Positions 4,259 through 27,420 are shown, counted from the first letter of the stretch. The stretch is DNA of 27,420 bases from Promethearchaeota archaeon (GCA_048938005.1 JBHLMQ010000042.1:1-27420), one strand, 5' to 3'. Program-made: numbers and translations. The notes: generated by a model not told the origin, from the letters alone.

Positions 4259-4846
4259 TTATTCTGATTTTTTACGCCATACGGTTAAATAGACAATAAG
4301 GAGAATTACCGCTGCGGGAATTCCAAAATAAATTACTAACCACATTACTGTTAAAAACCCTGCCCTAACGAAATAACTATATTCTAAAAAAGCAAATTGA
4401 GTGTCATAAAATCCATCTACAGCTACAAAGATACAAAACGCAATAAACATAAAAAGACCACCCCCACCGCCGCCACCCCAAGTTCTTGCTCTATGTGTTT
4501 CTTTCTTCGTTCTAGATTTAAATTCTTGCTTTTCTTCATCCGGTAATCTACGCCACCATAAATATCCTCCTATACCAAAAAATAATCCTGTAGGAAGACC
4601 AACAAATAATAGTTCCCATAATATTAAAAGAATCGCGAAACAGACTACATGCATTAATGTCCACTGATTAAATGTCCATGTACCTTGTCCACCAATAGGA
4701 GATGTTAGCATAAACCAAAACACCACTAAAATAGCACCTAAACAAGCGACAACTCCAGCAATAATTGCGATCATAAATGTTTTCCAATGTTCTCTAATTT
4801 TTTTTCCCCAAAATTTTTCGTCACTTAATTCTTCACTATTTTCCAT
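4259..4846 (-). CDS. Hypothetical membrane protein (about 4 TM, internal two-fold repeat, poly-Gly linker)
   Basis: 195-aa ORF with hydrophobic segments and a G7 run. It lies downstream of arsR on the same strand. Confidence 0.75.
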   Translation of the reverse strand: MENSEELSDEKFWGKKIREHWKTFMIAIIAGVVACLGAILVVFWFMLTSPIGGQGTWTFNQWTLMHVVCFAILLILWELLFVGLPTGLFFGIGGYLWWRRLPDEEKQEFKSRTKKETHRARTWGGGGGGGLFMFIAFCIFVAVDGFYDTQFAFLEYSYFVRAGFLTVMWLVIYFGIPAAVILLIVYLTVWRKKSE

Positions 4847-4990: not shown

Positions 4991-5383
4991 CTATCCAAAA
5001 CTGAATTTTTGATTAAAATTAGTAAGATACTTTTCAAATTCTTTCTTTAATAAGGTATAGTATGTAAATTTCCCTTTTTTCCATCCACGAATCAAGCCTA
5101 CTTTTTCTAATTCTCGTAAATGATGAGATATTGATGGTTGAGATTTATCCAAGATCGCTTCCAATTCGCAAACACAGCGTTCTTTATCCTTTAATGCAGT
5201 TAATATGGTTAATCGTTCCCTATTTCCTAATGCATGAAGAAATGTTAACAGCGAAGTTAATTCTTGATCAAATTTTAAATCGTTTCCAATTTGGTGTAAA
5301 TTTTTAAAGTATTTATCACCATTAGAGCAATCATCACATCCACATAATGTATCTTTAATCTTTTGCTTTCTTTCGATATTCAT
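4991..5383 (-). CDS. arsR: ArsR/SmtB family metalloregulatory transcriptional repressor
   Basis: ALGNRERLTIL...ERCVCELEAILDKSQPSISHHLRELEKVGLI...GKFTYY: winged HTH with an alpha3 CVC metal site, plus an N-terminal CGCDDC. Confidence 0.93.
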   Translation of the reverse strand: MNIERKQKIKDTLCGCDDCSNGDKYFKNLHQIGNDLKFDQELTSLLTFLHALGNRERLTILTALKDKERCVCELEAILDKSQPSISHHLRELEKVGLIRGWKKGKFTYYTLLKKEFEKYLTNFNQKFSFG

Positions 5384-5592: not shown

Positions 5593-5676
5593 ATGGGAGA
5601 GAAAACTAAAGAATGTTGTTCTGAAGAATCAAAAAATGATGATGGGGAATCCCAATCAAAAGAAGGATGTTGTTAA
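5593..5676 (+). CDS. 27-aa peptide with two Cys-Cys pairs (putative metal(loid)-binding micro-protein); not in the ORF track
   Basis: MGEKTKECCSEESKNDDGESQSKEGCC*, preceded by GAGGT at 5577-5581. It is the first ORF of the operon divergent from arsR. Confidence 0.65.
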   Translation: MGEKTKECCSEESKNDDGESQSKEGCC

Positions 5677-5745: not shown

Positions 5746-6357
5746 ATGAATATTATTGGTATATCAGGGACCCCTAGAAAAAATGGGAATAGTGAAATCC
5801 TCTTGGAGTATGCTTTAAAACCTTTTAAAAATAATGGATGGAATGTTAAAACTTTTCTATTAAGTGAGTTAACTATAAATCATTGTAAAGCTTGCGATTC
5901 ATGTAAGGAAACTGGAACTTGTATTATTAAAGATGATATGCAAGAAATTTATGATGCATTTCGATGGTGTCATGCCATCATAATCTCAAGTCCAGTTTAT
6001 TACCTCAATGTTAGTGCTCAATTACTTTCCTTACTTGATAGACATTACGCCGTACATGTCGAAAAACCTTTAGAAGGAAAGGTAGGGGGAGCACTTACGG
6101 TCGGTAATGGAACATGTGGAGGTCAAACATTAGCACTTAATACAATTTATTCATGGATGCTTTCATGCGGAATCATATGCATTCCCGGGGAATTAAATGG
6201 AGTCAAATCTGTAGCCGACAAGCCAGGAGATATTTTAAATCAAGAAAACCAGTTAAAACAAGCAGAAATTCTTGGATTTAATATACTAAAAGTGACAAAA
6301 GAATTAAAATCCATTACTGGGTTTAATAAATATCCTAAATACAATAAAAAGGTGTGA
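5746..6357 (+). CDS. Iron-sulfur flavoprotein (Isf) / flavodoxin-like NADPH-dependent FMN reductase family
   Basis: GTPRKNGNS FMN loop, compact CKACDSCKETGTC (Cx2Cx2Cx5C) cluster motif, DDM, and SPVYY. Confidence 0.9.
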   Translation: MNIIGISGTPRKNGNSEILLEYALKPFKNNGWNVKTFLLSELTINHCKACDSCKETGTCIIKDDMQEIYDAFRWCHAIIISSPVYYLNVSAQLLSLLDRHYAVHVEKPLEGKVGGALTVGNGTCGGQTLALNTIYSWMLSCGIICIPGELNGVKSVADKPGDILNQENQLKQAEILGFNILKVTKELKSITGFNKYPKYNKKV

Positions 6358-8033
6358 ATAAAATCGCTGTAGTATATATGCGAAAGCTGGAATTAGAACC
6401 AGAAACCTATGATTCAAAATTCACAGAACTTACTAAAAGTACGAATATTAAAGTTCATGATTGGATATTAGAAAGGATTAAAGTACCGCAAATAATCTTA
6501 GAAGTAGGATGCGGAACAGGTACTCTTGCTAAAAAGATGGCATTAAAAGGCAACGAAGTTCTAGCGATTGATCAAAACTTGCAAATGATAAATATTGCGA
6601 TGAAAAACTATTCTTCTAAGGAAGAACTGAAACTTTTATATCAAATAGGCTCTATTCATAATTTACCTGTAGAAGATAATTCTAAAGATTTAATTGTTAG
6701 TACATTCATGCTTTCAGAGCTTAGACCATTTGAACAACAAATCTTTCTCAGAAAAATATGGAAAGCATTGAAGCCAAAAGGACGAGTTCTTCTCGCAGCA
6801 GAATTTATGCCCTCAGGATTTTGGAGGATATGGTTCAAAATAAAGAGATGGTTGTACAAAAAAAAATTAAGGAGACTTCGGTTAGAGAGTACGTTTATAG
6901 TAAAATGGTTTTTCAATTATTTAGAACCTATAGGTTTTAAAATTGTAGCAGAAAAAAAATGGAGACATGGATCTATTCGAGCAATTGAACTAGAAAAAAT
7001 TGATGATGAGAATTTAAACGAACCAGGATTTTACCGTCCTAATCCCCGAAAATTTAAGGGTTTACGTGCGCAAATGAATATTTATCGTTGCATTTTTACA
7101 GGACAAGTAGACCATGTTCCAATTGAACCAGGAATTTACCAATCTGGAAATCCAGATGAGAATTCTCCTGTTATAGTAACTGCAAATTATATTTACACTT
7201 ATATTAAAGTAATGCGTGCTCTTAAAGGAATAGATGCATGGGTTTTGTGTGTAGATTCAAGAGGAATAAATGTATGGTGTGCTGCGCGAGGAAATGATTT
7301 TGGAAACAAGCAATTAATTGAAGCAGTTGAAGCAACTGAAATTGCAAAGATCACCAGTAAGAAAACATTATTTCTACCTCAACTATCTGCTGGAGGGATA
7401 GCAACACCTCTAATAAAAAGTGAAGCAGCAAATTTTCCATTTAATTTATTATACGGTCCTGTTTGGGCTAAATATCTACCTCAATTCCTTGAAGAACGCC
7501 CTGCCCATAAACCTGATAAAATGAAATTGGCAAGATTTTCATTATCCCATCGTCTTCGAGCTGGAATAACACATACTACTTTTTTATTTCGAAAAGTTTT
7601 TCTATTACCTAGCATTGCTTTGTTTCTGCTATTGATGGTACTTGTACTTACTGATACCTTATGGATAGGTAAATTATGGATAGTTGGTGAATTTTGGCTC
7701 TGGATAATTATAACAAACGCTTTAATTGCGATATTAATTCCTATTACAAATTTCACACGGAAATTTATCATTAAAGGAATAATTTTTGGAGTTATCAACA
7801 TACTATTGTTCATTGGGATTTCTTGGCTTTTAGGTACCTCAATACCTTCGATTTTCTTGAGTCTTTGCTTGTATTTTTGGTTAGCATTTTTCGCTACAAT
7901 GTCGTTTAGTGGATATACGATGGCAACCAGCCCTCGAGAAATTCAAGACGAATATCCCATTTTTACTAAAATAAATATAACTTTATTAATAATTGGTCTC
8001 ATAACCAAGGCAATTGCTTTTATTTTTTTTTAA
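6354..8033 (+). CDS. hgcA: Fusion of a class I SAM-dependent methyltransferase and an HgcA-like corrinoid-binding/transmembrane protein
   Basis: Residues about 1-215: LEVGCGTG, AID, DLIVSTFML, LKPKG. Residues about 250-385: IEPGIY.GNPDENSPVIVTANY...AWVLCVDSRGINVWCAA...LPQLSAGG...YGPVWAKYLP, collinear with the HgcA/CdhD-like cobalamin domain. Then about 5 TM helices with MSFSGYTMATS, matching the HgcA MNFTGSTxxTS position. The GTG start overlaps the Isf stop (GTGA). Confidence 0.85.
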   Translation: MNKIAVVYMRKLELEPETYDSKFTELTKSTNIKVHDWILERIKVPQIILEVGCGTGTLAKKMALKGNEVLAIDQNLQMINIAMKNYSSKEELKLLYQIGSIHNLPVEDNSKDLIVSTFMLSELRPFEQQIFLRKIWKALKPKGRVLLAAEFMPSGFWRIWFKIKRWLYKKKLRRLRLESTFIVKWFFNYLEPIGFKIVAEKKWRHGSIRAIELEKIDDENLNEPGFYRPNPRKFKGLRAQMNIYRCIFTGQVDHVPIEPGIYQSGNPDENSPVIVTANYIYTYIKVMRALKGIDAWVLCVDSRGINVWCAARGNDFGNKQLIEAVEATEIAKITSKKTLFLPQLSAGGIATPLIKSEAANFPFNLLYGPVWAKYLPQFLEERPAHKPDKMKLARFSLSHRLRAGITHTTFLFRKVFLLPSIALFLLLMVLVLTDTLWIGKLWIVGEFWLWIIITNALIAILIPITNFTRKFIIKGIIFGVINILLFIGISWLLGTSIPSIFLSLCLYFWLAFFATMSFSGYTMATSPREIQDEYPIFTKINITLLIIGLITKAIAFIFF

Positions 8034-8092
8034 TATTTTAGAATAAAACAAAATAAATAAGATAAAAAAATATTATTAAATTAGAAAAAAAG

Positions 8093-8398
8093 GTGGTTAA
8101 AATAACTTTAAAAACAACATCAGTTAAGATGCATTTAGTTATTCCAAAAATCTCGATAAATCCTGATTTATGCACTGGTTGTGGTATATGTGGAGAAGTA
8201 TGCCCTTTTGGAATTCCAAAGTTAAATGATAATGGAAAATTCGAAATGTATGAACCTGAACGTTGTACAGAGTGTTCTGCTTGCAAACGGAATTGCCCTA
8301 CAATGGCAATAATGTTACAAGAGCAAAAAGGTTGTGGCTGTTTATGGAATGCTCGTTATATTGCTAAAAATCCACAAAATAATAGTTGTTGTGGATAA
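8093..8398 (+). CDS. hgcB: HgcB-like 2x[4Fe-4S] ferredoxin with C-terminal cysteines (alternative start at ATG 8129)
   Basis: CTGCGICGEVCP and CTECSACKRNCP clusters, then GCGC (HgcB GVGC position) and terminal SCCG. It lies immediately downstream of the hgcA-like gene. Confidence 0.82.
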   Translation: MVKITLKTTSVKMHLVIPKISINPDLCTGCGICGEVCPFGIPKLNDNGKFEMYEPERCTECSACKRNCPTMAIMLQEQKGCGCLWNARYIAKNPQNNSCCG

Positions 8399-8448: not shown

Positions 8449-9282
8449 TTAATACTCAAATTCCTTCTTTTTTTTTTCAAGAAACCTTTTTCTGGTCAAT
8501 AGATCCATTTCAGCATTTAACCAACAAAGTTCATCATATGTACAGCTTGAATTGAATACTTCCTCTGCCTTCCTCTTAATATCTTCAATAGAAGGCATAT
8601 CAAAATTCATCTTCTGAATTTTTTCTCCAAGGAGCCAGCATAACTGGTCGTATGTATATCCATCTAGTGAAAGGAAATAAGCTGCTTCCCTTATTTGTGT
8701 ATTAAAATCTACTTCTACCGGTTCTTCTCTTACTTCTTTTATAATAGCAACCTTTTCGTCCTCTTTTTTTTTTACTTGAACTGGAGGTTGTTCAAACCTA
8801 ATGAACTTAACAGTAGTAGAAGGTTCTTGTACTTTTTGCGGTTCAACCCTCCGATGATCTTTAATTTGCTTGAACCATCTTAGTAATCTCTCTTCAACAC
8901 TAATTTCTCTCTCTTTTGGAGTTCCATTAAGACCAATAGATTTGATAGTTTCGGGGGGTACTTCAAATACAAATTCTGGTCTTCGCTCAACTGTCTTGCC
9001 TGGTATTAATCCCTTTTCTAAATTGTGCATCATAGCTAAAAAGGAACCATATTCTCGTTTTTGTTTCATTATGAGAATTTTTGCTGATCCGCCACGTTCT
9101 TTATCTATTTTCCTTGCAATGTCCGCAGTAATATCTTTTTTTGCTTGAGATACTTTTAATCCTACCCAAATATAAATAGTGTTTTTTTGTTTATCATCAA
9201 CAAGAAAAACCTCGTTTTCTTCGAAAGATAATTTATCTAACTTAATTAATTCTGCCTTATCATTAATATTAAATAATCGCAT
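8449..9282 (-). CDS. Gelsolin-domain protein with a C-terminal tandem helical repeat (Asgard gelsolin-like)
   Basis: SFEENEVFLVDD...TIYIWVG...AKKDITADIARKID...KREYGSFL matches a single gelsolin fold. The C-terminus has two TYD(Q/E)LCWL repeats. Confidence 0.7.
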   Translation of the reverse strand: MRLFNINDKAELIKLDKLSFEENEVFLVDDKQKNTIYIWVGLKVSQAKKDITADIARKIDKERGGSAKILIMKQKREYGSFLAMMHNLEKGLIPGKTVERRPEFVFEVPPETIKSIGLNGTPKEREISVEERLLRWFKQIKDHRRVEPQKVQEPSTTVKFIRFEQPPVQVKKKEDEKVAIIKEVREEPVEVDFNTQIREAAYFLSLDGYTYDQLCWLLGEKIQKMNFDMPSIEDIKRKAEEVFNSSCTYDELCWLNAEMDLLTRKRFLEKKKKEFEY

Positions 9283-12550: not shown

Positions 12551-15493
12551 ATGTATCTAAAAAAAATTAGAATATACGCAATAACAGTTCTATTTATCTT
12601 AGGATTTTGTGCCTTTATAACTCCGGCTTTTTCTTGGGCTGGTGGAAAATGTTGGTATAAATGTGGGAAGCCAAAGGTACCATCCGAAGATGAGATGTTC
12701 GGTTGGATTGAAGACTTATGGGAAATAGGTGATCAGGGTAAGTATGGATATAGAATGCCAGGAACAGCGGCAGATCATGAAGGTGCAGAATATGTCTTAG
12801 AGAAATTTGAGGAGTTTGGATTAGAAAATACATTTATGGAACCTGTATCTATACCTGTGAACTTTCCTGATGTATGGAGTTTAACAATACACGTAGGTGG
12901 AGTAGATACATCACTACCTTGTGGTTTTGTCCGTTATGCGAAATTCACACCTCCAGGAGGAATTAAAGAGGAAATGGTTTATGTTTATACGGGATCTGAG
13001 ACAGATTTCGAAGAAGCAAATAATACTGTAGGAGTTGCAGACAAAATAGTTGTTGTAGATTTGATTGCGCCAGGTATTCCAATGGCGGTGCTTGACTTTT
13101 TTGACTTATATACTTACGATCCAGATAACAACTTGCCGGGAGATAAGATTACTGAAAATTGGCCCGTAGCCAATATCAACAGTGCTTATGATTTAGCTGC
13201 TGAATACGGTGCTGCTGGATTCGTTGGCATCCTTACATTTACAGCTGATGATATTCATCAATACCTGCATGCATACGTCGATGGTTCTATTCCAGGAGTT
13301 TATATAAGCCCAAATGATGGTACTGAGTTAAGGAATTTATTATTGAGTGGAACTCCAGTTGAAGCGACAATGGTTTTAACCGGATATGAAGGAATAGGAG
13401 AAACTTACAACGTATATGGTTTTCTACCAGGGAAATCAGATGAGATAATTGTAGTTGTTTCTCACCATGATGGATGGGCAACCAATGAAGGTTCAGGAAT
13501 GTCAGTAGTCATGGCTTTGGCAAAATATTTCGCTAAGATTCCTAAATGCAATAGGGAAAGAACATTGATGTTCCTTGCATTGTCAAGTCATTTTGGAATA
13601 AGACCTGGTTTATTAGATTTATGTCCGCAAGTTGCTGCTTTGCAAGATAAAATTGTTGCTGATGTTAGCGTTGAGATGATTTCAAAACAATATAAGATTA
13701 TTGGTGGAGAATTTGTCGAAACTGGTTTAATTTCTCCAAGAGCACTATTTGTTTCAGGACTTCCAGGGTCGGGAAATCCGTACCTATTAGATTTTGCTAT
13801 AGATGCGGTTATTGAAAATAATTTAGACCGTACATCAATTCAACCTGCTTCTGGAGGACTTTTCCCTCACGCCCCTGGAGAAGGCGGATTATTTGATGCT
13901 ATAGGCATACCAACTGTGCACCTTATCGCTCATAACGCTCCTCAATTTACTCATATGGATACTCCAGAGACAGTCCAAAAAGATGCTTTAGTGCCAACAG
14001 TAAAAGCTTTAAGAGATATCATCAACAGAATTGACAAAACCTCAGCACCCTTATTGAAATGGGATATGACGGTCGACAGTCGGAGTGTGAAAGCATATCC
14101 TGAATTAAGAGAATATATTTGGGAGTTAGAACGCCCACCATTTGGTCCATTTGATAGAATAGGTCTACATAGATTAGTGAAGACAGGTGTTGAACCAGAA
14201 GGAGTTGTATTCCTCTTACCAGGAACTTGGAGTAATGGTGAACAATTAACTTCAAATCCGCCTGAAGACATGTGGATCCACTATGAAAATCATAGCTTTG
14301 CTTTCTATCTTGCAAATAGAAATTTTGACGTCTATGCAATAGATTATAGAACCCACTTTGTAAATCAATACTTGAATCCCCCTGATCTTGCCTTTATGGC
14401 AGACTGGGGCTGGGATGAGTGGATTAGCGATATAAAGGAAGCAGTAGAATTAGCAAAAGTGGTATCTGGAGATGATAGAGTATATATAGCCGGTGATAGT
14501 TTCGGCGGAAGTGCGGCTATGAATTATGCATCAATGTATTGGAAGGAAGATCTCAAAGGTATACTCCTACGGGATGGTGGAACCGGAGCTAAATATCCTT
14601 GGCTTGTAACTAATACGTCTAATTTACCTTTAATGATTGCTGGAATGAAAGCAACAGGTCAGTGGGCTAGTGAAGTAGGTGGGAGCCCCGGGTCGATATT
14701 TTTAATGAAATATGCTGATGAAAATCCTACAGCTCCAGCTGTATTTCCACCAGGACATCCATATGAAGGTATACCTCTCCCACCAGGAATAAATAACCAT
14801 ACTGGATTACCATTCGCTAATATCGCTGAATGGGCTGCGTGGTCAATACATTATGCTTGGGGTCCCGGCGTGGTTAGTAATATCTATGGTGGTTATGGTG
14901 ATCCTGCCGTTATGATACACATTGATGCTACGTTTGATAGGTATTGGCCATCAAGACTAAATCTTGAGAGTTATGCAATTAGAGATTGGGATAACTGTCC
15001 ATATGTATCCTTTGATTTTGACGATTACTATTATGAGATTGATGTTCCACTTCTCGCTTTTACAAGCGAGTTAATGGGACTAGCTTATTGGGGTCCATTT
15101 ATGCACGGTATTGCTAATCCAGACTTTACAGGAACATATCTTTGGGGATATGGTCACTTGGATGTCTATTCTGGTGAATATTCTGCAGTACAAGTCAGTC
15201 AACCTACTTATGAGTGGCTAATGAGCCATAGAATGCTTGTTGGATCTGGTAGAATTTGGTCCAATGGAGATTGGATCTGGGGAGAAGCAGCAATCTATAT
15301 TAATGCATTAACAATTGAACTAAGAATTGATGAAATACGTGTATCATGGGATATAATTAGTCACCAAGTTGGATGGAAGCACGAGATTTATAGAGGAAAG
15401 AATAATTTCGGTAAGATCACGGTCATTATTACTAAAAAATGGTTGTCAGTTGCTTCTGGTCATAAAGTTTTCTTTATCGGGTGTAAAGTATAA
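12551..15493 (+). CDS. Secreted PA-domain/M28-like peptidase fused to an alpha/beta hydrolase
   Basis: Signal peptide, RMPGT, PA domain (DKIVVVD...GAAGF), SHHDG, NEGSG and HMDTP. The second half has LPGTW, AIDYR, the GDSFGG nucleophile elbow and GYGHLD. Confidence 0.75.
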   Translation: MYLKKIRIYAITVLFILGFCAFITPAFSWAGGKCWYKCGKPKVPSEDEMFGWIEDLWEIGDQGKYGYRMPGTAADHEGAEYVLEKFEEFGLENTFMEPVSIPVNFPDVWSLTIHVGGVDTSLPCGFVRYAKFTPPGGIKEEMVYVYTGSETDFEEANNTVGVADKIVVVDLIAPGIPMAVLDFFDLYTYDPDNNLPGDKITENWPVANINSAYDLAAEYGAAGFVGILTFTADDIHQYLHAYVDGSIPGVYISPNDGTELRNLLLSGTPVEATMVLTGYEGIGETYNVYGFLPGKSDEIIVVVSHHDGWATNEGSGMSVVMALAKYFAKIPKCNRERTLMFLALSSHFGIRPGLLDLCPQVAALQDKIVADVSVEMISKQYKIIGGEFVETGLISPRALFVSGLPGSGNPYLLDFAIDAVIENNLDRTSIQPASGGLFPHAPGEGGLFDAIGIPTVHLIAHNAPQFTHMDTPETVQKDALVPTVKALRDIINRIDKTSAPLLKWDMTVDSRSVKAYPELREYIWELERPPFGPFDRIGLHRLVKTGVEPEGVVFLLPGTWSNGEQLTSNPPEDMWIHYENHSFAFYLANRNFDVYAIDYRTHFVNQYLNPPDLAFMADWGWDEWISDIKEAVELAKVVSGDDRVYIAGDSFGGSAAMNYASMYWKEDLKGILLRDGGTGAKYPWLVTNTSNLPLMIAGMKATGQWASEVGGSPGSIFLMKYADENPTAPAVFPPGHPYEGIPLPPGINNHTGLPFANIAEWAAWSIHYAWGPGVVSNIYGGYGDPAVMIHIDATFDRYWPSRLNLESYAIRDWDNCPYVSFDFDDYYYEIDVPLLAFTSELMGLAYWGPFMHGIANPDFTGTYLWGYGHLDVYSGEYSAVQVSQPTYEWLMSHRMLVGSGRIWSNGDWIWGEAAIYINALTIELRIDEIRVSWDIISHQVGWKHEIYRGKNNFGKITVIITKKWLSVASGHKVFFIGCKV

Positions 15494-23689: not shown

Positions 23690-24841
23690 TTATTTTCTAT
23701 ATTTCCCATAAGTTTTACATGTGTCTATCATAATTTTTACATTTTCAAGTTTAGCATTATCAGGTATTTCTGAACCTACAAAAAGTCCACCACCTTCAGC
23801 ACATTTATCAATTATCTCTTTTGTTTGTTTTTCAACCATAGCTGGAGTTCCTAATGTAAATAAAGAAGGTTTTAGATTTCCTTGAATGCACATATGATCA
23901 CCCAATATATCCTTTGCTTTGAAAATATCGGTTCTCTCATCCATATGCATGTAAATTCTTCCTTTTGGTAACTCCCTTAAATAGTGTAAACGATCTGTCC
24001 AATTAGTATCCATGTGAAGTTGTACAATAAATCCATCGTTTACATATCTGGAGACCATTTTCTTGAAATACGGCCAGAACAATTCTTCAAAATGCTTGAT
24101 AGAGATAAAATCAGAACTCGCTCTTGCTGCCCCAACTAAAATAGTCTTTCCACCGGATTTTAAAAAACCATATTCTCCCATTAAAATCAATTTATCAATC
24201 AGATAATCACTTACTTCTATTATTTTATGAGGGTACCGATATATGTCTTTCATGAAGTTAGTTGAACCCCTAAATACAGATAAAAGATCGAAAGGAGGAA
24301 TTGCTGCTCCATCATTGAAGGTAGGTACTTGAAATTCTGTCCACCATTTTACAGTATTTTCTTTAACTTTTTCACCTATTTTTCCTAACTTCCTCATATC
24401 TTTCATGCTTGCCCTTCTAAAATTTGCTAACCAGAACAATCCTTCTTCGATTATGCGATCATAATCGTTTTCAGTCATAAATGGATCTGTAAGGCTTTGC
24501 TCAAAAAGTTGTGGCGATGCATTTTTATCTAGCATACGTCCGGGTAATCTCCAATCAAGGTAAAAAACTGAAAAAAAATCGGGAAAGGGATTAACGTATT
24601 GCATATACATTCCACCTCCTGCCATAGCAATATCATATCCACCTAATTTATGATAGATCCACTCATTTGCTGCTTGTGATTTATCCGGATCTTCAATCAT
24701 TTCCTGAGCAGTAACATCAGTATAGTATACCGGAAGAAAGTCTATTAGAGGCCAAACAGGTACTCTATCAGGTTCCTTTAAATCTATAGCAGTTAACACC
24801 CTTTCAACTGAAGTCATAGGTTCTTCCATGATATCCTTCAT
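23690..24841 (-). CDS. Uroporphyrinogen decarboxylase / MtaA-CmuA family methylcobamide methyltransferase
   Basis: ERVLTAI...PDRVPV, LHMD, CIQGNL, GTP..VEKQTKEIIDK, and IPDNAKLENV. The start was moved to ATG 24841 because of a strong upstream AAGGAGG. Confidence 0.85.
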   Translation of the reverse strand: MKDIMEEPMTSVERVLTAIDLKEPDRVPVWPLIDFLPVYYTDVTAQEMIEDPDKSQAANEWIYHKLGGYDIAMAGGGMYMQYVNPFPDFFSVFYLDWRLPGRMLDKNASPQLFEQSLTDPFMTENDYDRIIEEGLFWLANFRRASMKDMRKLGKIGEKVKENTVKWWTEFQVPTFNDGAAIPPFDLLSVFRGSTNFMKDIYRYPHKIIEVSDYLIDKLILMGEYGFLKSGGKTILVGAARASSDFISIKHFEELFWPYFKKMVSRYVNDGFIVQLHMDTNWTDRLHYLRELPKGRIYMHMDERTDIFKAKDILGDHMCIQGNLKPSLFTLGTPAMVEKQTKEIIDKCAEGGGLFVGSEIPDNAKLENVKIMIDTCKTYGKYRK

Positions 24842-24843
24842 CT

Positions 24844-25485
24844 TTATCCCTCCTTCACCCATTTTGTTATTATATTCACACCCTCAAAAGCATTGTCAGT
24901 AAATGCATCAGCTCCTGCTTTTTTCATCCACATTTCGTCAACAGGTAAACCACCAATTATGATTTTTACTTTATCTCTTAACCCTTCCGTTTTCAATGCT
25001 TCTGTTATTTCTTGCATAGCCTCAAGAGCTACTGTGAGTAATCCTGAATATGCAACAATACGAGCATTTGTTTCTTTTACTTTTTCAATAAATACTTCGG
25101 GTGGAACATCAACACCTAAATCGAACACTTCAAATCCAGCGGATTGCAAAAGTGTAACAAAAATATTTTTTCCGATATCATGCACATCACCTTGGACTGT
25201 TCCAACAACAACAGCTATACCCTGCTGTCCGCTTTCTGTCTCCTTTTCTAATGCAGGTTGAAGAATTTTAGCAGATTTTTGGAATATTTCTCCAGCCATT
25301 ACAAGCTCAGTTAAAAAATATTCTTTTTTATTAAATTTATCTCCAATAATTTCAACGCCCTTGCGTAGAATATCAATTATATCCTTTGCATTAGTTCCCT
25401 CCTCTAACAATTTCCTCACAAGGGAATATGACCTTTCTTCTTCCAACTCTACAACTGCATCAATAAGTTCTTCTTTACTGCTCAT
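24844..25485 (-). CDS. Corrinoid (B12-binding) protein, MtaC/MttC-like
   Basis: B12 cap domain (EYFLTELVMAGE), GDVHDIGKN (DxHxxG), DLGVDV, YSGLLT and IGG. Upstream GGAGG. Confidence 0.93.
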   Translation of the reverse strand: MSSKEELIDAVVELEEERSYSLVRKLLEEGTNAKDIIDILRKGVEIIGDKFNKKEYFLTELVMAGEIFQKSAKILQPALEKETESGQQGIAVVVGTVQGDVHDIGKNIFVTLLQSAGFEVFDLGVDVPPEVFIEKVKETNARIVAYSGLLTVALEAMQEITEALKTEGLRDKVKIIIGGLPVDEMWMKKAGADAFTDNAFEGVNIITKWVKEG

Positions 25486-25776: not shown

Positions 25777-27420
25777 TTAAAAAGTTTTTGGAAAATACTC
25801 CTCAATAATTTTTACCCAAGGATGGCTTTTAACTTTTTGAGTTTCAAGATATATATCTTTGTCATTTTTTATTTTTATAATACATTCTTGAATCTTTTCT
25901 ATCGAGCTTGATTTCACATTAACTAAATATTGAGATATTCGGTTAATTAAATTTATATTTAAGGCATCCATTTGAAATTTGTGGCAAAATATCACTTCGA
26001 AGATTAAAAGATTTATCAACTCCTCAAAGAATAAGATAAATTCCTTGTTTTGCTCTCTTAAAGTATCGTTACTATTCATAATAATCATAATATCTGAAAT
26101 AAAATTAAGAATTTCATAATCCTCCCGTAGATTAAGTGGTAGTCTATTGACATTATTCACTGAAATTTCTGTTGTTAAATGTGCCCCTAAATTAAATACA
26201 AAATCATAATAAAAATTCATTAGTTTTGAATTCATTAATAGTAGAAGGTATTTTAAACTAATATCTCCATCAAGACCCTCTTTTGGAATAATAGTAATAC
26301 ATGTGCTTAAAGGATAATAATTTTGATTATCATAAGCCGCAGTAAGATTTGAACTAATTGTTCGGATAATTAATTTCTCAGTTCTTAAAAATATCTTTTC
26401 GTTTCTAGCTCTATGAAGTAATTTAGGATTATAATGTATGTATAAATCTTCGAAATCTATATAAAACCGTCCGATATTTTTACCTCTGAGAGTTTTCTTA
26501 TATGAGTCGTTAATTTTATAATTTGCTAAGAATTTCGCATCATCTCCGGTAGCTATGCATGTTTTAGCTTCAAAGTACTTAGCTAAATCGCAATCTTTAT
26601 TTTCTTTAATATAGTTAATTATTTCAAGTTCCTCATATTGGAGGTTTAAATTAATATTATAGTTTTCTTGTTCTAAAAAAGTATTTTGGGCTATATGTTT
26701 TACTGTCAAATCTCGAAATGTAAAATATTTTTGATTAGATAATTTAGCTTTTATTAGTATTTTATGACCTTCTGCAGGAGATCTTGTTGTTAATACTATA
26801 ATTACCGTTTCAGCAGTTACAAATTGAAATGCTCTTGCCCCTACATCGATGATTTCTTCAATTGTAGTATCTTCTAAAAGGTGCTTCCTTAACAAAATAT
26901 AATTATTTGAGCGAATAATATTCTTGTGAACAATGTAACTGATCCTTGAAGATGTGTGGCATAATTTGATAGATCGTTCAATAAAAATTCCAAATGCATT
27001 CATTAAACCCTTTGGCGTCTCATACCTGTCTTGATATATTGCTTTCTCGAGAGGACTCAACTGTTTATTAGAAATATAGGGCGGATTTTCGATAATAATA
27101 TCGAAACCACCTTTTGCCATTATTTCGGGAAATTCATTGAACCAATGAAACGGCTTTAAAGCTAATACCATAGTTTTCTTTTCTTTTTCTGTTAATTTAA
27201 TCTTCTTTAAATCTTTGTGAGTTAGAAAAATACTTTTTATTTCATCATAAAAGCAATCATTTAAGTCTGTATAACGTGAAGTATCAATTTCTGTTTGATT
27301 TATGAAACCAATTATAGCATTACCTACTTTGTAATTGAATTCAATATTTGGTAAAGTCCTACCATTCTCTGTATATGAATCCATTTTTTCAAGAGCTAAA
27401 ATTAATCTCTGCTTGGTAAT
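25777..27420 (-). CDS. N6-adenine DNA methyltransferase, Eco57I/TaqI-like (partial, 5' end outside the window)
   Basis: The frame is open to the window edge (ITKQRLILAL...LPNIEFNYKVGN), with FHWFNEFPEI..GGFDIIIENPPY (motif IV) and a TaqI_C-like target-recognition region (LRGKNIGRF, EKLIIR, LLMNSKL). Confidence 0.88.
   Translation of the reverse strand: MTKQRLILALEKMDSYTENGRTLPNIEFNYKVGNAIIGFINQTEIDTSRYTDLNDCFYDEIKSIFLTHKDLKKIKLTEKEKKTMVLALKPFHWFNEFPEIMAKGGFDIIIENPPYISNKQLSPLEKAIYQDRYETPKGLMNAFGIFIERSIKLCHTSSRISYIVHKNIIRSNNYILLRKHLLEDTTIEEIIDVGARAFQFVTAETVIIVLTTRSPAEGHKILIKAKLSNQKYFTFRDLTVKHIAQNTFLEQENYNINLNLQYEELEIINYIKENKDCDLAKYFEAKTCIATGDDAKFLANYKINDSYKKTLRGKNIGRFYIDFEDLYIHYNPKLLHRARNEKIFLRTEKLIIRTISSNLTAAYDNQNYYPLSTCITIIPKEGLDGDISLKYLLLLMNSKLMNFYYDFVFNLGAHLTTEISVNNVNRLPLNLREDYEILNFISDIMIIMNSNDTLREQNKEFILFFEELINLLIFEVIFCHKFQMDALNINLINRISQYLVNVKSSSIEKIQECIIKIKNDKDIYLETQKVKSHPWVKIIEEYFPKTF

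Follow-up and report, generated by a model that had tools for sequence, protein, structure and literature searches.

We report on a locus of a Promethearchaeota archaeon, carried by a stretch of 27,420 nucleotides (GCA_048938005.1 JBHLMQ010000042.1:1-27420; this whole stretch is called the window hereafter), in which a class I methyltransferase domain of the type using S-adenosylmethionine (SAM) is joined in one protein to a corrinoid domain related to HgcA of the mercury-methylating pair HgcAB. The fused gene occupies 6354..8033 on the plus strand as a single open reading frame (ORF) of 559 amino acids (aa), with a GTG start and no internal stop, and its start shares 4 nt with the stop of an upstream FMN-reductase gene (5746..6357). 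Residues 1-215 (6354..6998) form the methyltransferase domain, which is of the CpaM type; a linker (6999..7118) follows, with one helix (residues 237-248) and a cysteine, C246, that is kept in at least 90% of fused homologues. Then come an HgcA-like corrinoid-binding domain (residues 256-395, 7119..7538), recognised by Pfam CdhD and by the NCBIfam models HgcA and HgcAB_like, and an HgcA-type transmembrane (TM) domain of five helices (residues 397-558, 7542..8027), recognised by an AlphaFold2 model, a match to NF040863 and a fold match. Downstream on the same strand, at 8093..8398, stands the gene of an HgcB-like 2[4Fe-4S] ferredoxin of 101 aa, which is a separate ORF lying 59 nt past the fusion stop (8031-8033), thus the HgcA-like part and the ferredoxin are not one polypeptide. 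An earlier note made from the sequence alone had described a methyltransferase, an HgcA-like corrinoid domain and a TM region within one 559-aa ORF, and this description is borne out by the ORF itself, by Pfam and NCBIfam and by the AlphaFold2 model.

In the Pfam search of the 559-aa protein, Methyltransf_25 matches residues 48-143 (E 2.4e-17), and CdhD/PF03599, the family to which the corrinoid iron-sulfur protein (CoFeSP) belongs, matches residues 241-346 (E 5.4e-14). Among the NCBIfam models, CpaM (NF043040, a profile of 216 positions) covers residues 6-213 at 134.5 bits (137.6 in the genome search), without reaching its cut-off of 180; the second-best family for this half, BioC, scores 49.8 bits, and the next generic methyltransferase of the same genome gives 59 bits on the CpaM model. 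For the other half, HgcAB_like (NF043039) matches residues 255-522 at 176 bits against a cut-off of 285, and HgcA_corrinoid (NF040863, cut-off 275) matches residues 256-553 at 173 bits (174.7 in the genome search). The functional motifs of both halves are strictly kept: in 62 fused homologues of 27-85% identity, G52, G54 and G56 of motif I (LEVGCGTG, residues 49-56) together with D73 of the SAM motif are invariant, and so are N306, V307, W308, C309 and A311 of the cap helix, which reads NVWCAARG and whose Cys309 is encoded at 7278-7280. In addition, M9, L12, E13, a nearly invariant Y19 and an LSE motif are common to the fused forms and to stand-alone CpaM, and residues 1-230 contain one Cys only, C53 in motif I.

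The AlphaFold2 model, built from 62 homologues (pLDDT 91.6, pTM 0.87), predicts a Rossmann domain, an alpha/beta corrinoid domain and a helical C-terminus with five long helices (397-432, 438-465, 471-492, 497-521 and 527-558). Its top fold match in the PDB is the deposited HgcAB model 9a0b_A (E 3e-12, TM-score 0.60 on target), and class I methyltransferases, 8ys9 and 3l8d among them, come next; the fold relatives also include a phosphatidylethanolamine N-methyltransferase and enzymes of the Coq5/UbiE type. By sequence, the PDB relatives are methyltransferases and CoFeSP large subunits only, and the latter match residues 242-382.

As for the ferredoxin, the earlier note had ascribed to it the cysteine layout of HgcB, and all elements of that layout are indeed present: two CxxCxxCxxxCP motifs (C27/30/33/37 and C58/61/64/68), a GCGC (C81, C83) 13 residues past the second motif, and a terminal SCCG (C98, C99). 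HgcB (NF040864) is the best-scoring NCBIfam family of this protein, although its 56.7 bits lie below the cut-off of 99. HgcB cannot do without the Cys about 12 residues past the second cluster motif and requires at least one Cys at its C-terminus (PMC7305189); the window ferredoxin retains the equivalents of both, namely HgcB Cys73 and Cys94/95. This arrangement is widely kept, since a same-strand ferredoxin stands directly 3' of the fusion in 47 of 50 loci, two of the three misses stopping at the locus edge, and the GCGC is seen in 46 and the terminal CC pair in 43 of these 47 ferredoxins, including those of clades only 30-35% identical. By comparison, the ferredoxin tails of AB-type proteins, in which the ferredoxin is fused to the HgcA-like part, lack the GCGC and CC cysteines in 27 of 29 cases and mostly end just past the second cluster motif.

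The host genome is a metagenome-assembled genome (MAG) of 101 contigs with 7.2% contamination, and the earlier note had named an assembly chimera at the junction as a danger to its claim. This danger can be set aside. Logan contigs from runs of two other studies span the junction without joints (X4 over 6243-7768, X7 over 6229-7226 and X5 over 6807-8394). What is more, the survey of the fusion across Asgard genomes that the note had proposed found, in the 400 genomes of the phylum surveyed, at least 133 full-span matches in at least 131 genomes, where full-span means query residue 7 or lower through 537 or higher in one open frame and the counts are lower bounds; some match to the fusion at E <= 1e-10 occurs in 268 of the 400. 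Among the matches listed, the 131 genomes comprise 90 of the window's own family (its own genome included), 8 of the same order, 1 of the same class and 32 elsewhere, and the latter belong to two other families in which the fusion is found at 29-35% identity. The complete chromosome of Promethearchaeum syntrophicum MK-D1 (NZ_CP042905.2, locus L073) carries the fusion as well, at 54% identity in a frame of 550 aa, and additionally a separate pair made up of a CpaM and an HgcAB-like gene. The best 120 of 597 homologues have about 505-578 aa, 62-100% identity and 90-100% query coverage, lie on contigs of up to 3.3 Mb, and come, as far as they are named, from Promethearchaeota, Hod-, Thor-, Loki- and Hermodarchaeota. 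With two other studies' contigs, at least 131 genomes and a complete chromosome on the other side, that the fusion is an artefact of assembly or gene calling is hardly conceivable. Internal stops in two of the matches (in G277 and G261:C14) were considered as selenocysteine codons, an idea that was rejected, as they are gene boundaries.

To place the corrinoid half, residues 240-559 were searched with HMMER against 1.84 billion representatives, which gave 958 matches at E <= 1e-3. The top ranks are held by methyltransferase-fused proteins with an NVWCAARG cap helix, the second rank by proteins of the canonical HgcA type (NVWCAAGKG, about 330-400 aa), and forms with a C-terminal ferredoxin come lower. 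A check of ten representatives against NCBIfam agrees with this picture: four plain ones are HgcA (344-420 bits) and two ferredoxin-fused ones are HgcAB_like (386 and 448 bits), while the methyltransferase-fused ones score on CpaM above the cut-off (P0135, 211.5; P0260, 192.2) or below it (P0161, 130.2), and P0199 is best matched by HgcAB_like at 218.9 bits, below the cut-off. Trees were computed on the corrinoid and membrane part, for which 118 of 150 representatives were kept and 32 dropped as incomplete or without a cap motif. In a quick tree of 121 rows (the 118 representatives, the window protein, its own-genome paralogue and the CdhE of the same genome as outgroup), the window falls in a starred clade of 10 rows, outside a canonical clade of 95 rows and outside the ferredoxin-fused clade. 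A careful IQ-TREE tree of 53 rows comprises all 12 methyltransferase-fused and all 10 ferredoxin-fused proteins, 4 odd and 26 canonical ones, the canonical ones hand-picked from 91 plain rows, besides the outgroup. Here the canonical clade, which excludes the window clade, has support of 100/100, the window clade 99/95 and the ferredoxin-fused core 99/98. At the same time, the branching order among the window, AB-fused and other methyltransferase-fused lineages and canonical HgcA hangs on nodes of 25/25 and 13/0, and no root is claimed because the outgroup fills only 49% of the columns. A sister position of the window clade to canonical HgcA, seen in a quick 53-row tree (SH-aLRT 85), is gone in the careful one. 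In the careful tree a bacterial methyltransferase-fused protein (Candidatus Abyssubacteria) is sister to canonical HgcA (89/93).

The earlier note had also asked whether the corrinoid domain groups with CdhD/AcsC rather than with HgcA. Such a grouping was not found: of the 450 positions of the CoFeSP gamma profile only 307-446, the last ~140 residues, match the protein, at 64.6 bits against a cut-off of 306, and the genome has separate full CdhD/E copies on other contigs. On the evidence of profiles and trees, the corrinoid half is thus assigned to the HgcA superfamily and not to CdhD/AcsC. The HgcA label given earlier is right for the superfamily and fails in the strict sense, since with 173 against 275 bits and a place outside the 100/100 clade the protein is classed as other than canonical HgcA. 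A search of its own genome found no HgcA above the NF040863 cut-off, and among the 400 genomes of the phylum one such gene was found (G397:C110:1082-2017, locus L087, 436 bits), which may not belong to the archaeon, as it lies on a short contig in a genome with about 9% contamination.

The linkage of CpaM with HgcA-like proteins is not confined to the fusion. In the same genome (contig 37, L003 826-2606, minus strand), a stand-alone CpaM (223 aa) directly precedes an HgcAB-like fusion (366 aa), and both pass their cut-offs (258.9 bits against 180 and 370.8 against 285, respectively). Scanning the species genomes with this stand-alone CpaM gave 20 Asgard loci at 52-86% identity, and an HgcAB-like gene is the next one downstream in all 17 loci that have downstream DNA, the other three ending too early. 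A second scan, of metagenome contigs with an HgcAB-like protein, gave 80 loci, whose ORFs were scored by a hidden Markov model (HMM) of a 13-row CpaM alignment; by calibration, true CpaM and fused domains give 165-322 bits on it and other methyltransferases at most 77. The cap helix is non-canonical in 36 of the 80 loci and canonical (WCA[AS]GK) in 44. Among the non-canonical ones, 24 have a CpaM-type ORF immediately upstream on the same strand (110-195 bits), 4 have CpaM in the same ORF (184-189 bits), and the remaining 8 have less than 430 nt upstream. Put otherwise, all 27 non-canonical loci that have 500 nt or more of upstream DNA show a CpaM-type match, adjacent in 24 and in-frame in 3, and a 28th locus (L129) has it in-frame with only 267 nt upstream. 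In contrast, no CpaM-type match was found within the 3-kb flanks of the 44 canonical loci. The four single ORFs of CpaM, HgcA-like part and ferredoxin are 598-627 aa long (L124 2227-4020, L127 1792-3672, L129 268-2118 and L136 2140-4020), and the two that were checked both pass the NCBIfam cut-offs (CpaM 273 and 278 bits, HgcAB_like 376 each).

The same three modules therefore occur in three fusion states: CpaM joined to the HgcA-like part with a free HgcB-like ferredoxin, as in the window; stand-alone CpaM upstream of an HgcAB-like fusion; and all three in one ORF. Such a pattern is a classical signature of proteins that work together. We thus show that CpaM is linked with HgcA-like proteins in three fusion states, apart from canonical HgcA. 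The reasoning of the earlier note from a Rosetta-stone fusion gains from this, the split form being present in the same genome and CpaM-type genes accompanying non-canonical HgcA-like genes, not canonical hgcA.

Upstream of the fusion, the flavoprotein gene at 5746..6357 (plus strand) belongs to the NADPH-dependent FMN reductase family (Pfam FMN_red, E 3.8e-27), has a CxxCxxCx5C motif and may resemble iron-sulfur flavoproteins; it is a candidate electron feeder by its sequence features. Of 50 loci, 12 have a flavoprotein upstream of the fusion, 11 of them at genus level and one a separately fetched relative (L053). Divergently from this operon, at 4991..5383 on the minus strand, runs the gene of an ArsR/SmtB-family metalloregulator (Pfam HTH_5, E 5.3e-16; NCBIfam HTH_metalloreg, 76.7 bits with a cut-off of 55), with a CVC motif in the region of its DNA-binding helix and an N-terminal Cys cluster. 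ArsR homologues lie close to the fusion at 11 of 50 loci, some of them in distant clades, a lower bound as 29 of the 50 had only 1.5 kb of flank; CVCE is kept in all 11, and in two distant loci the ArsR gene stands directly upstream of the fusion. Inverted repeats between the ArsR gene and the operon are AT-rich and imperfect, and no operator is claimed in them. In P. mercurii, an ArsR-like regulator is co-transcribed with hgcAB (preprint 10.1101/2022.10.17.512643). A small ORF between ArsR and the operon (5593..5676, plus strand) encodes an acidic peptide of 27 aa with vicinal Cys pairs at residues 8-9 and 26-27, which may be a metal(loid)-binding peptide; NCBIfam has no family match for it at a meaningful score. 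Small ORFs (25-38 aa) with two or more CC pairs lie upstream on the same strand in 21 of 30 genus-level loci and in none of 20 more distant ones.

Some other features of the window may be recorded here. A multi-pass membrane protein of 195 aa with a seven-glycine run (4259-4846, minus strand; no meaningful NCBIfam match) recurs as a divergent neighbour beside the fusion at those genus-level loci that have no flavoprotein. A protein of 277 aa with a gelsolin repeat (8449-9282, minus strand; E 1.3e-6) is convergent with the ferredoxin, a position kept in most genus-level loci. Further away, at 23690-25485 on the minus strand, a 390-aa methyltransferase of the URO-D family (MtaA/MtbA-like) and a 213-aa B12-binding protein, whose ends overlap, form a separate corrinoid methyl-transfer pair. 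The region 13001-15000 has a GC content of 0.39-0.41 against about 0.27-0.33 elsewhere and lies within an ORF of 980 aa (12551-15493) with a weak hydrolase match only, and an Eco57I/TaqI-type restriction-modification methylase (25777-27420, minus strand) continues past the window end.

Regarding function, we propose that the locus encodes a three-module, SAM-driven corrinoid methyltransferase of the HgcA superfamily, in which the methyl group would go from SAM to cobalt and from cobalt to a thiol-bound metal or metalloid; we give this proposal a probability of roughly 0.55. The HgcB-like ferredoxin would reduce the corrinoid cobalt to Co(I), possibly with electrons from the translationally coupled FeS-flavoprotein in this genus. 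Cys309 of the HgcA-like domain would hold the corrinoid in a "Cys-on" state, and the CpaM-type Rossmann domain would bind SAM and methylate Co(I) to methyl-Co(III), releasing S-adenosylhomocysteine (SAH). The methyl would then be passed to a soft, thiol-bound metal or metalloid, which the five-helix domain, together with the ferredoxin's GCGC and C-terminal CC cysteines, may present at the face of the membrane, and the divergent ArsR-type thiolate sensor would probably set the expression of the whole. We infer that the Rossmann domain loads the cobalt from SAM, and likewise the path of the electrons and the kind of acceptor, which is probably a sulfur-loving metal or metalloid.

The chemistry itself has a precedent, as in purified canonical HgcAB, which shows Cys ligation and has two [4Fe-4S] clusters in HgcB, methyl-Co(III) and SAH arise when SAM methylates Co(I) (PMC11588087), so the statement in the earlier note that purified HgcAB has SAM as its methyl donor was correct. 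A hand-over between the two halves was also considered by docking them as separate chains together with SAM, which gave a median score of 0.48 (runs 0.48, 0.39 and 0.51), the best of three controls giving 0.00; the runs agree in at least 93% of contacts, with a partner pLDDT of at least 80. In the docking benchmark, 58 of 80 solved complexes got to the mark, as did 2 of 110 mismatched pairs, counts that the use of an own alignment and of added SAM makes rough here; with a score of 0.60 or lower, only 7 of the 80 solved complexes and both of the passing mismatches got there. The modelled docking of the Rossmann and corrinoid halves thus weakly favours a hand-over.

Several points weigh against this proposal. 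Purified canonical HgcAB needs no separate methyltransferase to take its methyl from SAM, hence a dedicated loader is not chemically required. CpaM and the fused forms appear to be known from their genes alone, and organisms with related fused HgcAB made no methylmercury in culture (PMC4646819, PMC10087281). By fold, the Rossmann domain stands nearest to methyltransferases of lipids and small molecules, and not to enzymes directed at corrinoids. Within the window's own family the gene is very common (90 of the at least 131 full-span genomes), and with such a prevalence a core function fits as well as detoxification. In addition, ArsR is present in just 11 of 50 loci, albeit mostly with short flanks.

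How far, then, should the protein be read as a mercury methylase proper, that is, as an HgcAB orthologue with an added N-terminal domain for which Hg(II) is the natural or at least a competent substrate? Its make-up invites such a reading by the cap-helix Cys, the five TM helices, the free HgcB with its Cys73 equivalent and CC tail, and the ArsR context as in P. mercurii; the next-best relatives of the corrinoid half after its own family are canonical HgcA (four of them at 344-420 bits on NF040863), and the quick 53-row tree placed the window clade as their sister with an SH-aLRT of 85. Yet the scores of 173 against 275 bits for HgcA and 56.7 against 99 for HgcB, the place outside the 100/100 canonical clade, the loss of the sister position at the 25/25 and 13/0 nodes of the careful tree, a cap helix with AARG where canonical forms have AAGK, and the negative cultures of the non-canonical relatives (PMC4646819, PMC10087281) all tell against it, and we consider it unlikely. 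Another view would change the task of the Rossmann domain, which would not load the cobalt but methylate the substrate or product (a tandem or second methylation) or just repair Co(II), the main source of methyl being elsewhere. Repair of this kind is known from methionine synthase, whose SAM-binding module recovers oxidised Co(II) by reductive methylation. The conserved M9, L12, E13, Y19 and LSE could form an acceptor site, the fold relatives of the domain act on small molecules and lipids, and canonical HgcAB reacts with SAM without any extra methyltransferase (PMC11588087); however, the strict co-occurrence of CpaM with the corrinoid protein in three fusion states is most simply read as direct hand-over, and the lone Cys of the methyltransferase domain, in motif I, leaves no ArsM-like thiol site for a metalloid, so that a role apart from loading seems to us rather improbable. 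In ArsM itself, conserved cysteines in the methyltransferase domain bind As(III). ArsM-like chemistry by the methyltransferase domain alone was rejected on account of the single Cys, and the arsenite methyltransferase model PRK11873 gives 40.5 bits on the fusion against a cut-off of 263.

The remaining view dispenses with metals altogether and sees a membrane-anchored corrinoid methyltransferase for an organic, possibly lipid or quinone-like, substrate, in an Asgard core function. The very high prevalence in the own family (90 of at least 131 full-span genomes) would suit it, as would fold relatives such as phosphatidylethanolamine N-methyltransferase and Coq5/UbiE-type enzymes and an HgcA membrane domain that is without known role. 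But the HgcB-type GCGC and CC cysteines are kept even in clades 30-35% identical, the ArsR has a thiolate CVC site, and a CC...CC peptide gene lies beside the operon, all of which makes a metal-unrelated function quite improbable for the window form; the AB-fused relatives, mostly without the Cys tail, might suit it better.

For a decade it has been debated what HgcAB naturally does and where its methyl group comes from, and in 2024 SAM was reportedly found to be an "unexpected" methyl donor of HgcAB. That a SAM methyltransferase is naturally fused to an HgcA-like protein, and that CpaM as a rule goes with non-canonical and not with canonical forms, adds comparative evidence of an independent kind for a superfamily running on SAM. 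The linkage also gives a concrete reason to revisit the "non-methylating" fused HgcAB together with its CpaM partner, as earlier tests may have been incomplete, and metagenome surveys that count cap-helix sequences as mercury methylators may include this family in Asgard archaea. Since the gene is present in a cultured, completely sequenced Asgard archaeon, tests of expression and activity are feasible. A bolder idea, which we hold doubtful, is that the CpaM-type methyltransferase is the ancestral methyl loader of the whole HgcA superfamily, lost by canonical HgcAB, which reacts with SAM directly, and that the Asgard form, keeping both the loader and the HgcB metal-handling cysteines, is an active methylase acting on Hg, As, Sb or Se/Te. 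If it were true, Asgard archaea, the cultured strain of NZ_CP042905.2 among them, would produce methylated metal(loid)s in marine sediments without having been recognised for it.

With respect to prior literature, the statement of the earlier note that hgcA homologues occur in Asgard MAGs was right (PMC10083202, PMC12484752). The first of these studies has Asgard sequences in a "fused-HgcAB" clade and cut off the first 327 positions of its alignment because these were poorly aligned; the methyltransferase domain could have been hidden in this way. In the available portions of two papers on fused HgcAB (PMC4646819, PMC10087281) the word "methyltransferase" does not occur, and our search of the literature available to us found no paper describing a methyltransferase fused or adjacent to an HgcA-like gene. 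On the other hand, NCBIfam models CpaM as a "corrinoid protein-associated methyltransferase" and NCBI labels some fused proteins of ~548 aa as CpaM, so the association is already known to curators. The remark in the earlier note that the architecture was not recognised as described therefore stands as far as the papers searched are concerned and gives way with regard to the models and names at NCBIfam and NCBI.

Set against known systems, the window form shares with canonical HgcA and HgcB (NF040863/NF040864) a CoFeSP-related corrinoid domain, a cap-helix Cys, which in canonical HgcA is the strictly conserved Cys93 of strain ND132 (PMC7305189), a five-helix membrane domain, a separate 2[4Fe-4S] ferredoxin with a Cys ~12 residues past the second motif and a C-terminal Cys pair, and an ArsR-type gene nearby. 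SAM is the demonstrated source of methyl there, whereas here it is implied by the fused SAM domain. It differs from them by its N-terminal CpaM-type Rossmann methyltransferase, found at 0 of 44 canonical loci, by AARG instead of AAGK, and by scores below both cut-offs and a place outside the 100/100 clade. With the HgcAB-like fusion and its CpaM (NF043039 and NF043040) it has in common the methyltransferase family and the order of methyltransferase, HgcA-like part and ferredoxin; however, in the window the methyltransferase is fused and the ferredoxin free, in the other form the ferredoxin is fused, and the two fall in separate clades. CoFeSP (AcsC/CdhE with AcsD/CdhD) resembles it in the homologous corrinoid domain, in FeS reduction to Co(I) and in a separate loading methyltransferase module, but its loader is a TIM-barrel methyl-tetrahydrofolate/methyl-pterin enzyme, its corrinoid is without a Cys ligand, it lacks a membrane domain, its acceptor is the nickel of acetyl-CoA synthase, and only ~140 residues of its gamma profile match the window protein. 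In cobalamin-dependent radical SAM methylases, and in the module that reactivates methionine synthase (MetH), SAM likewise methylates Co(I)/Co(II) to methylcobalamin, from which the methyl passes to the substrate, as is partly discussed in PMC11588087; these systems differ in using radical-SAM or MetH-specific SAM folds, not the class I Rossmann fold. Among these systems the window form is a third arrangement, which combines the CpaM module of the HgcAB-like pair with the free, Cys-tailed HgcB of canonical HgcAB.

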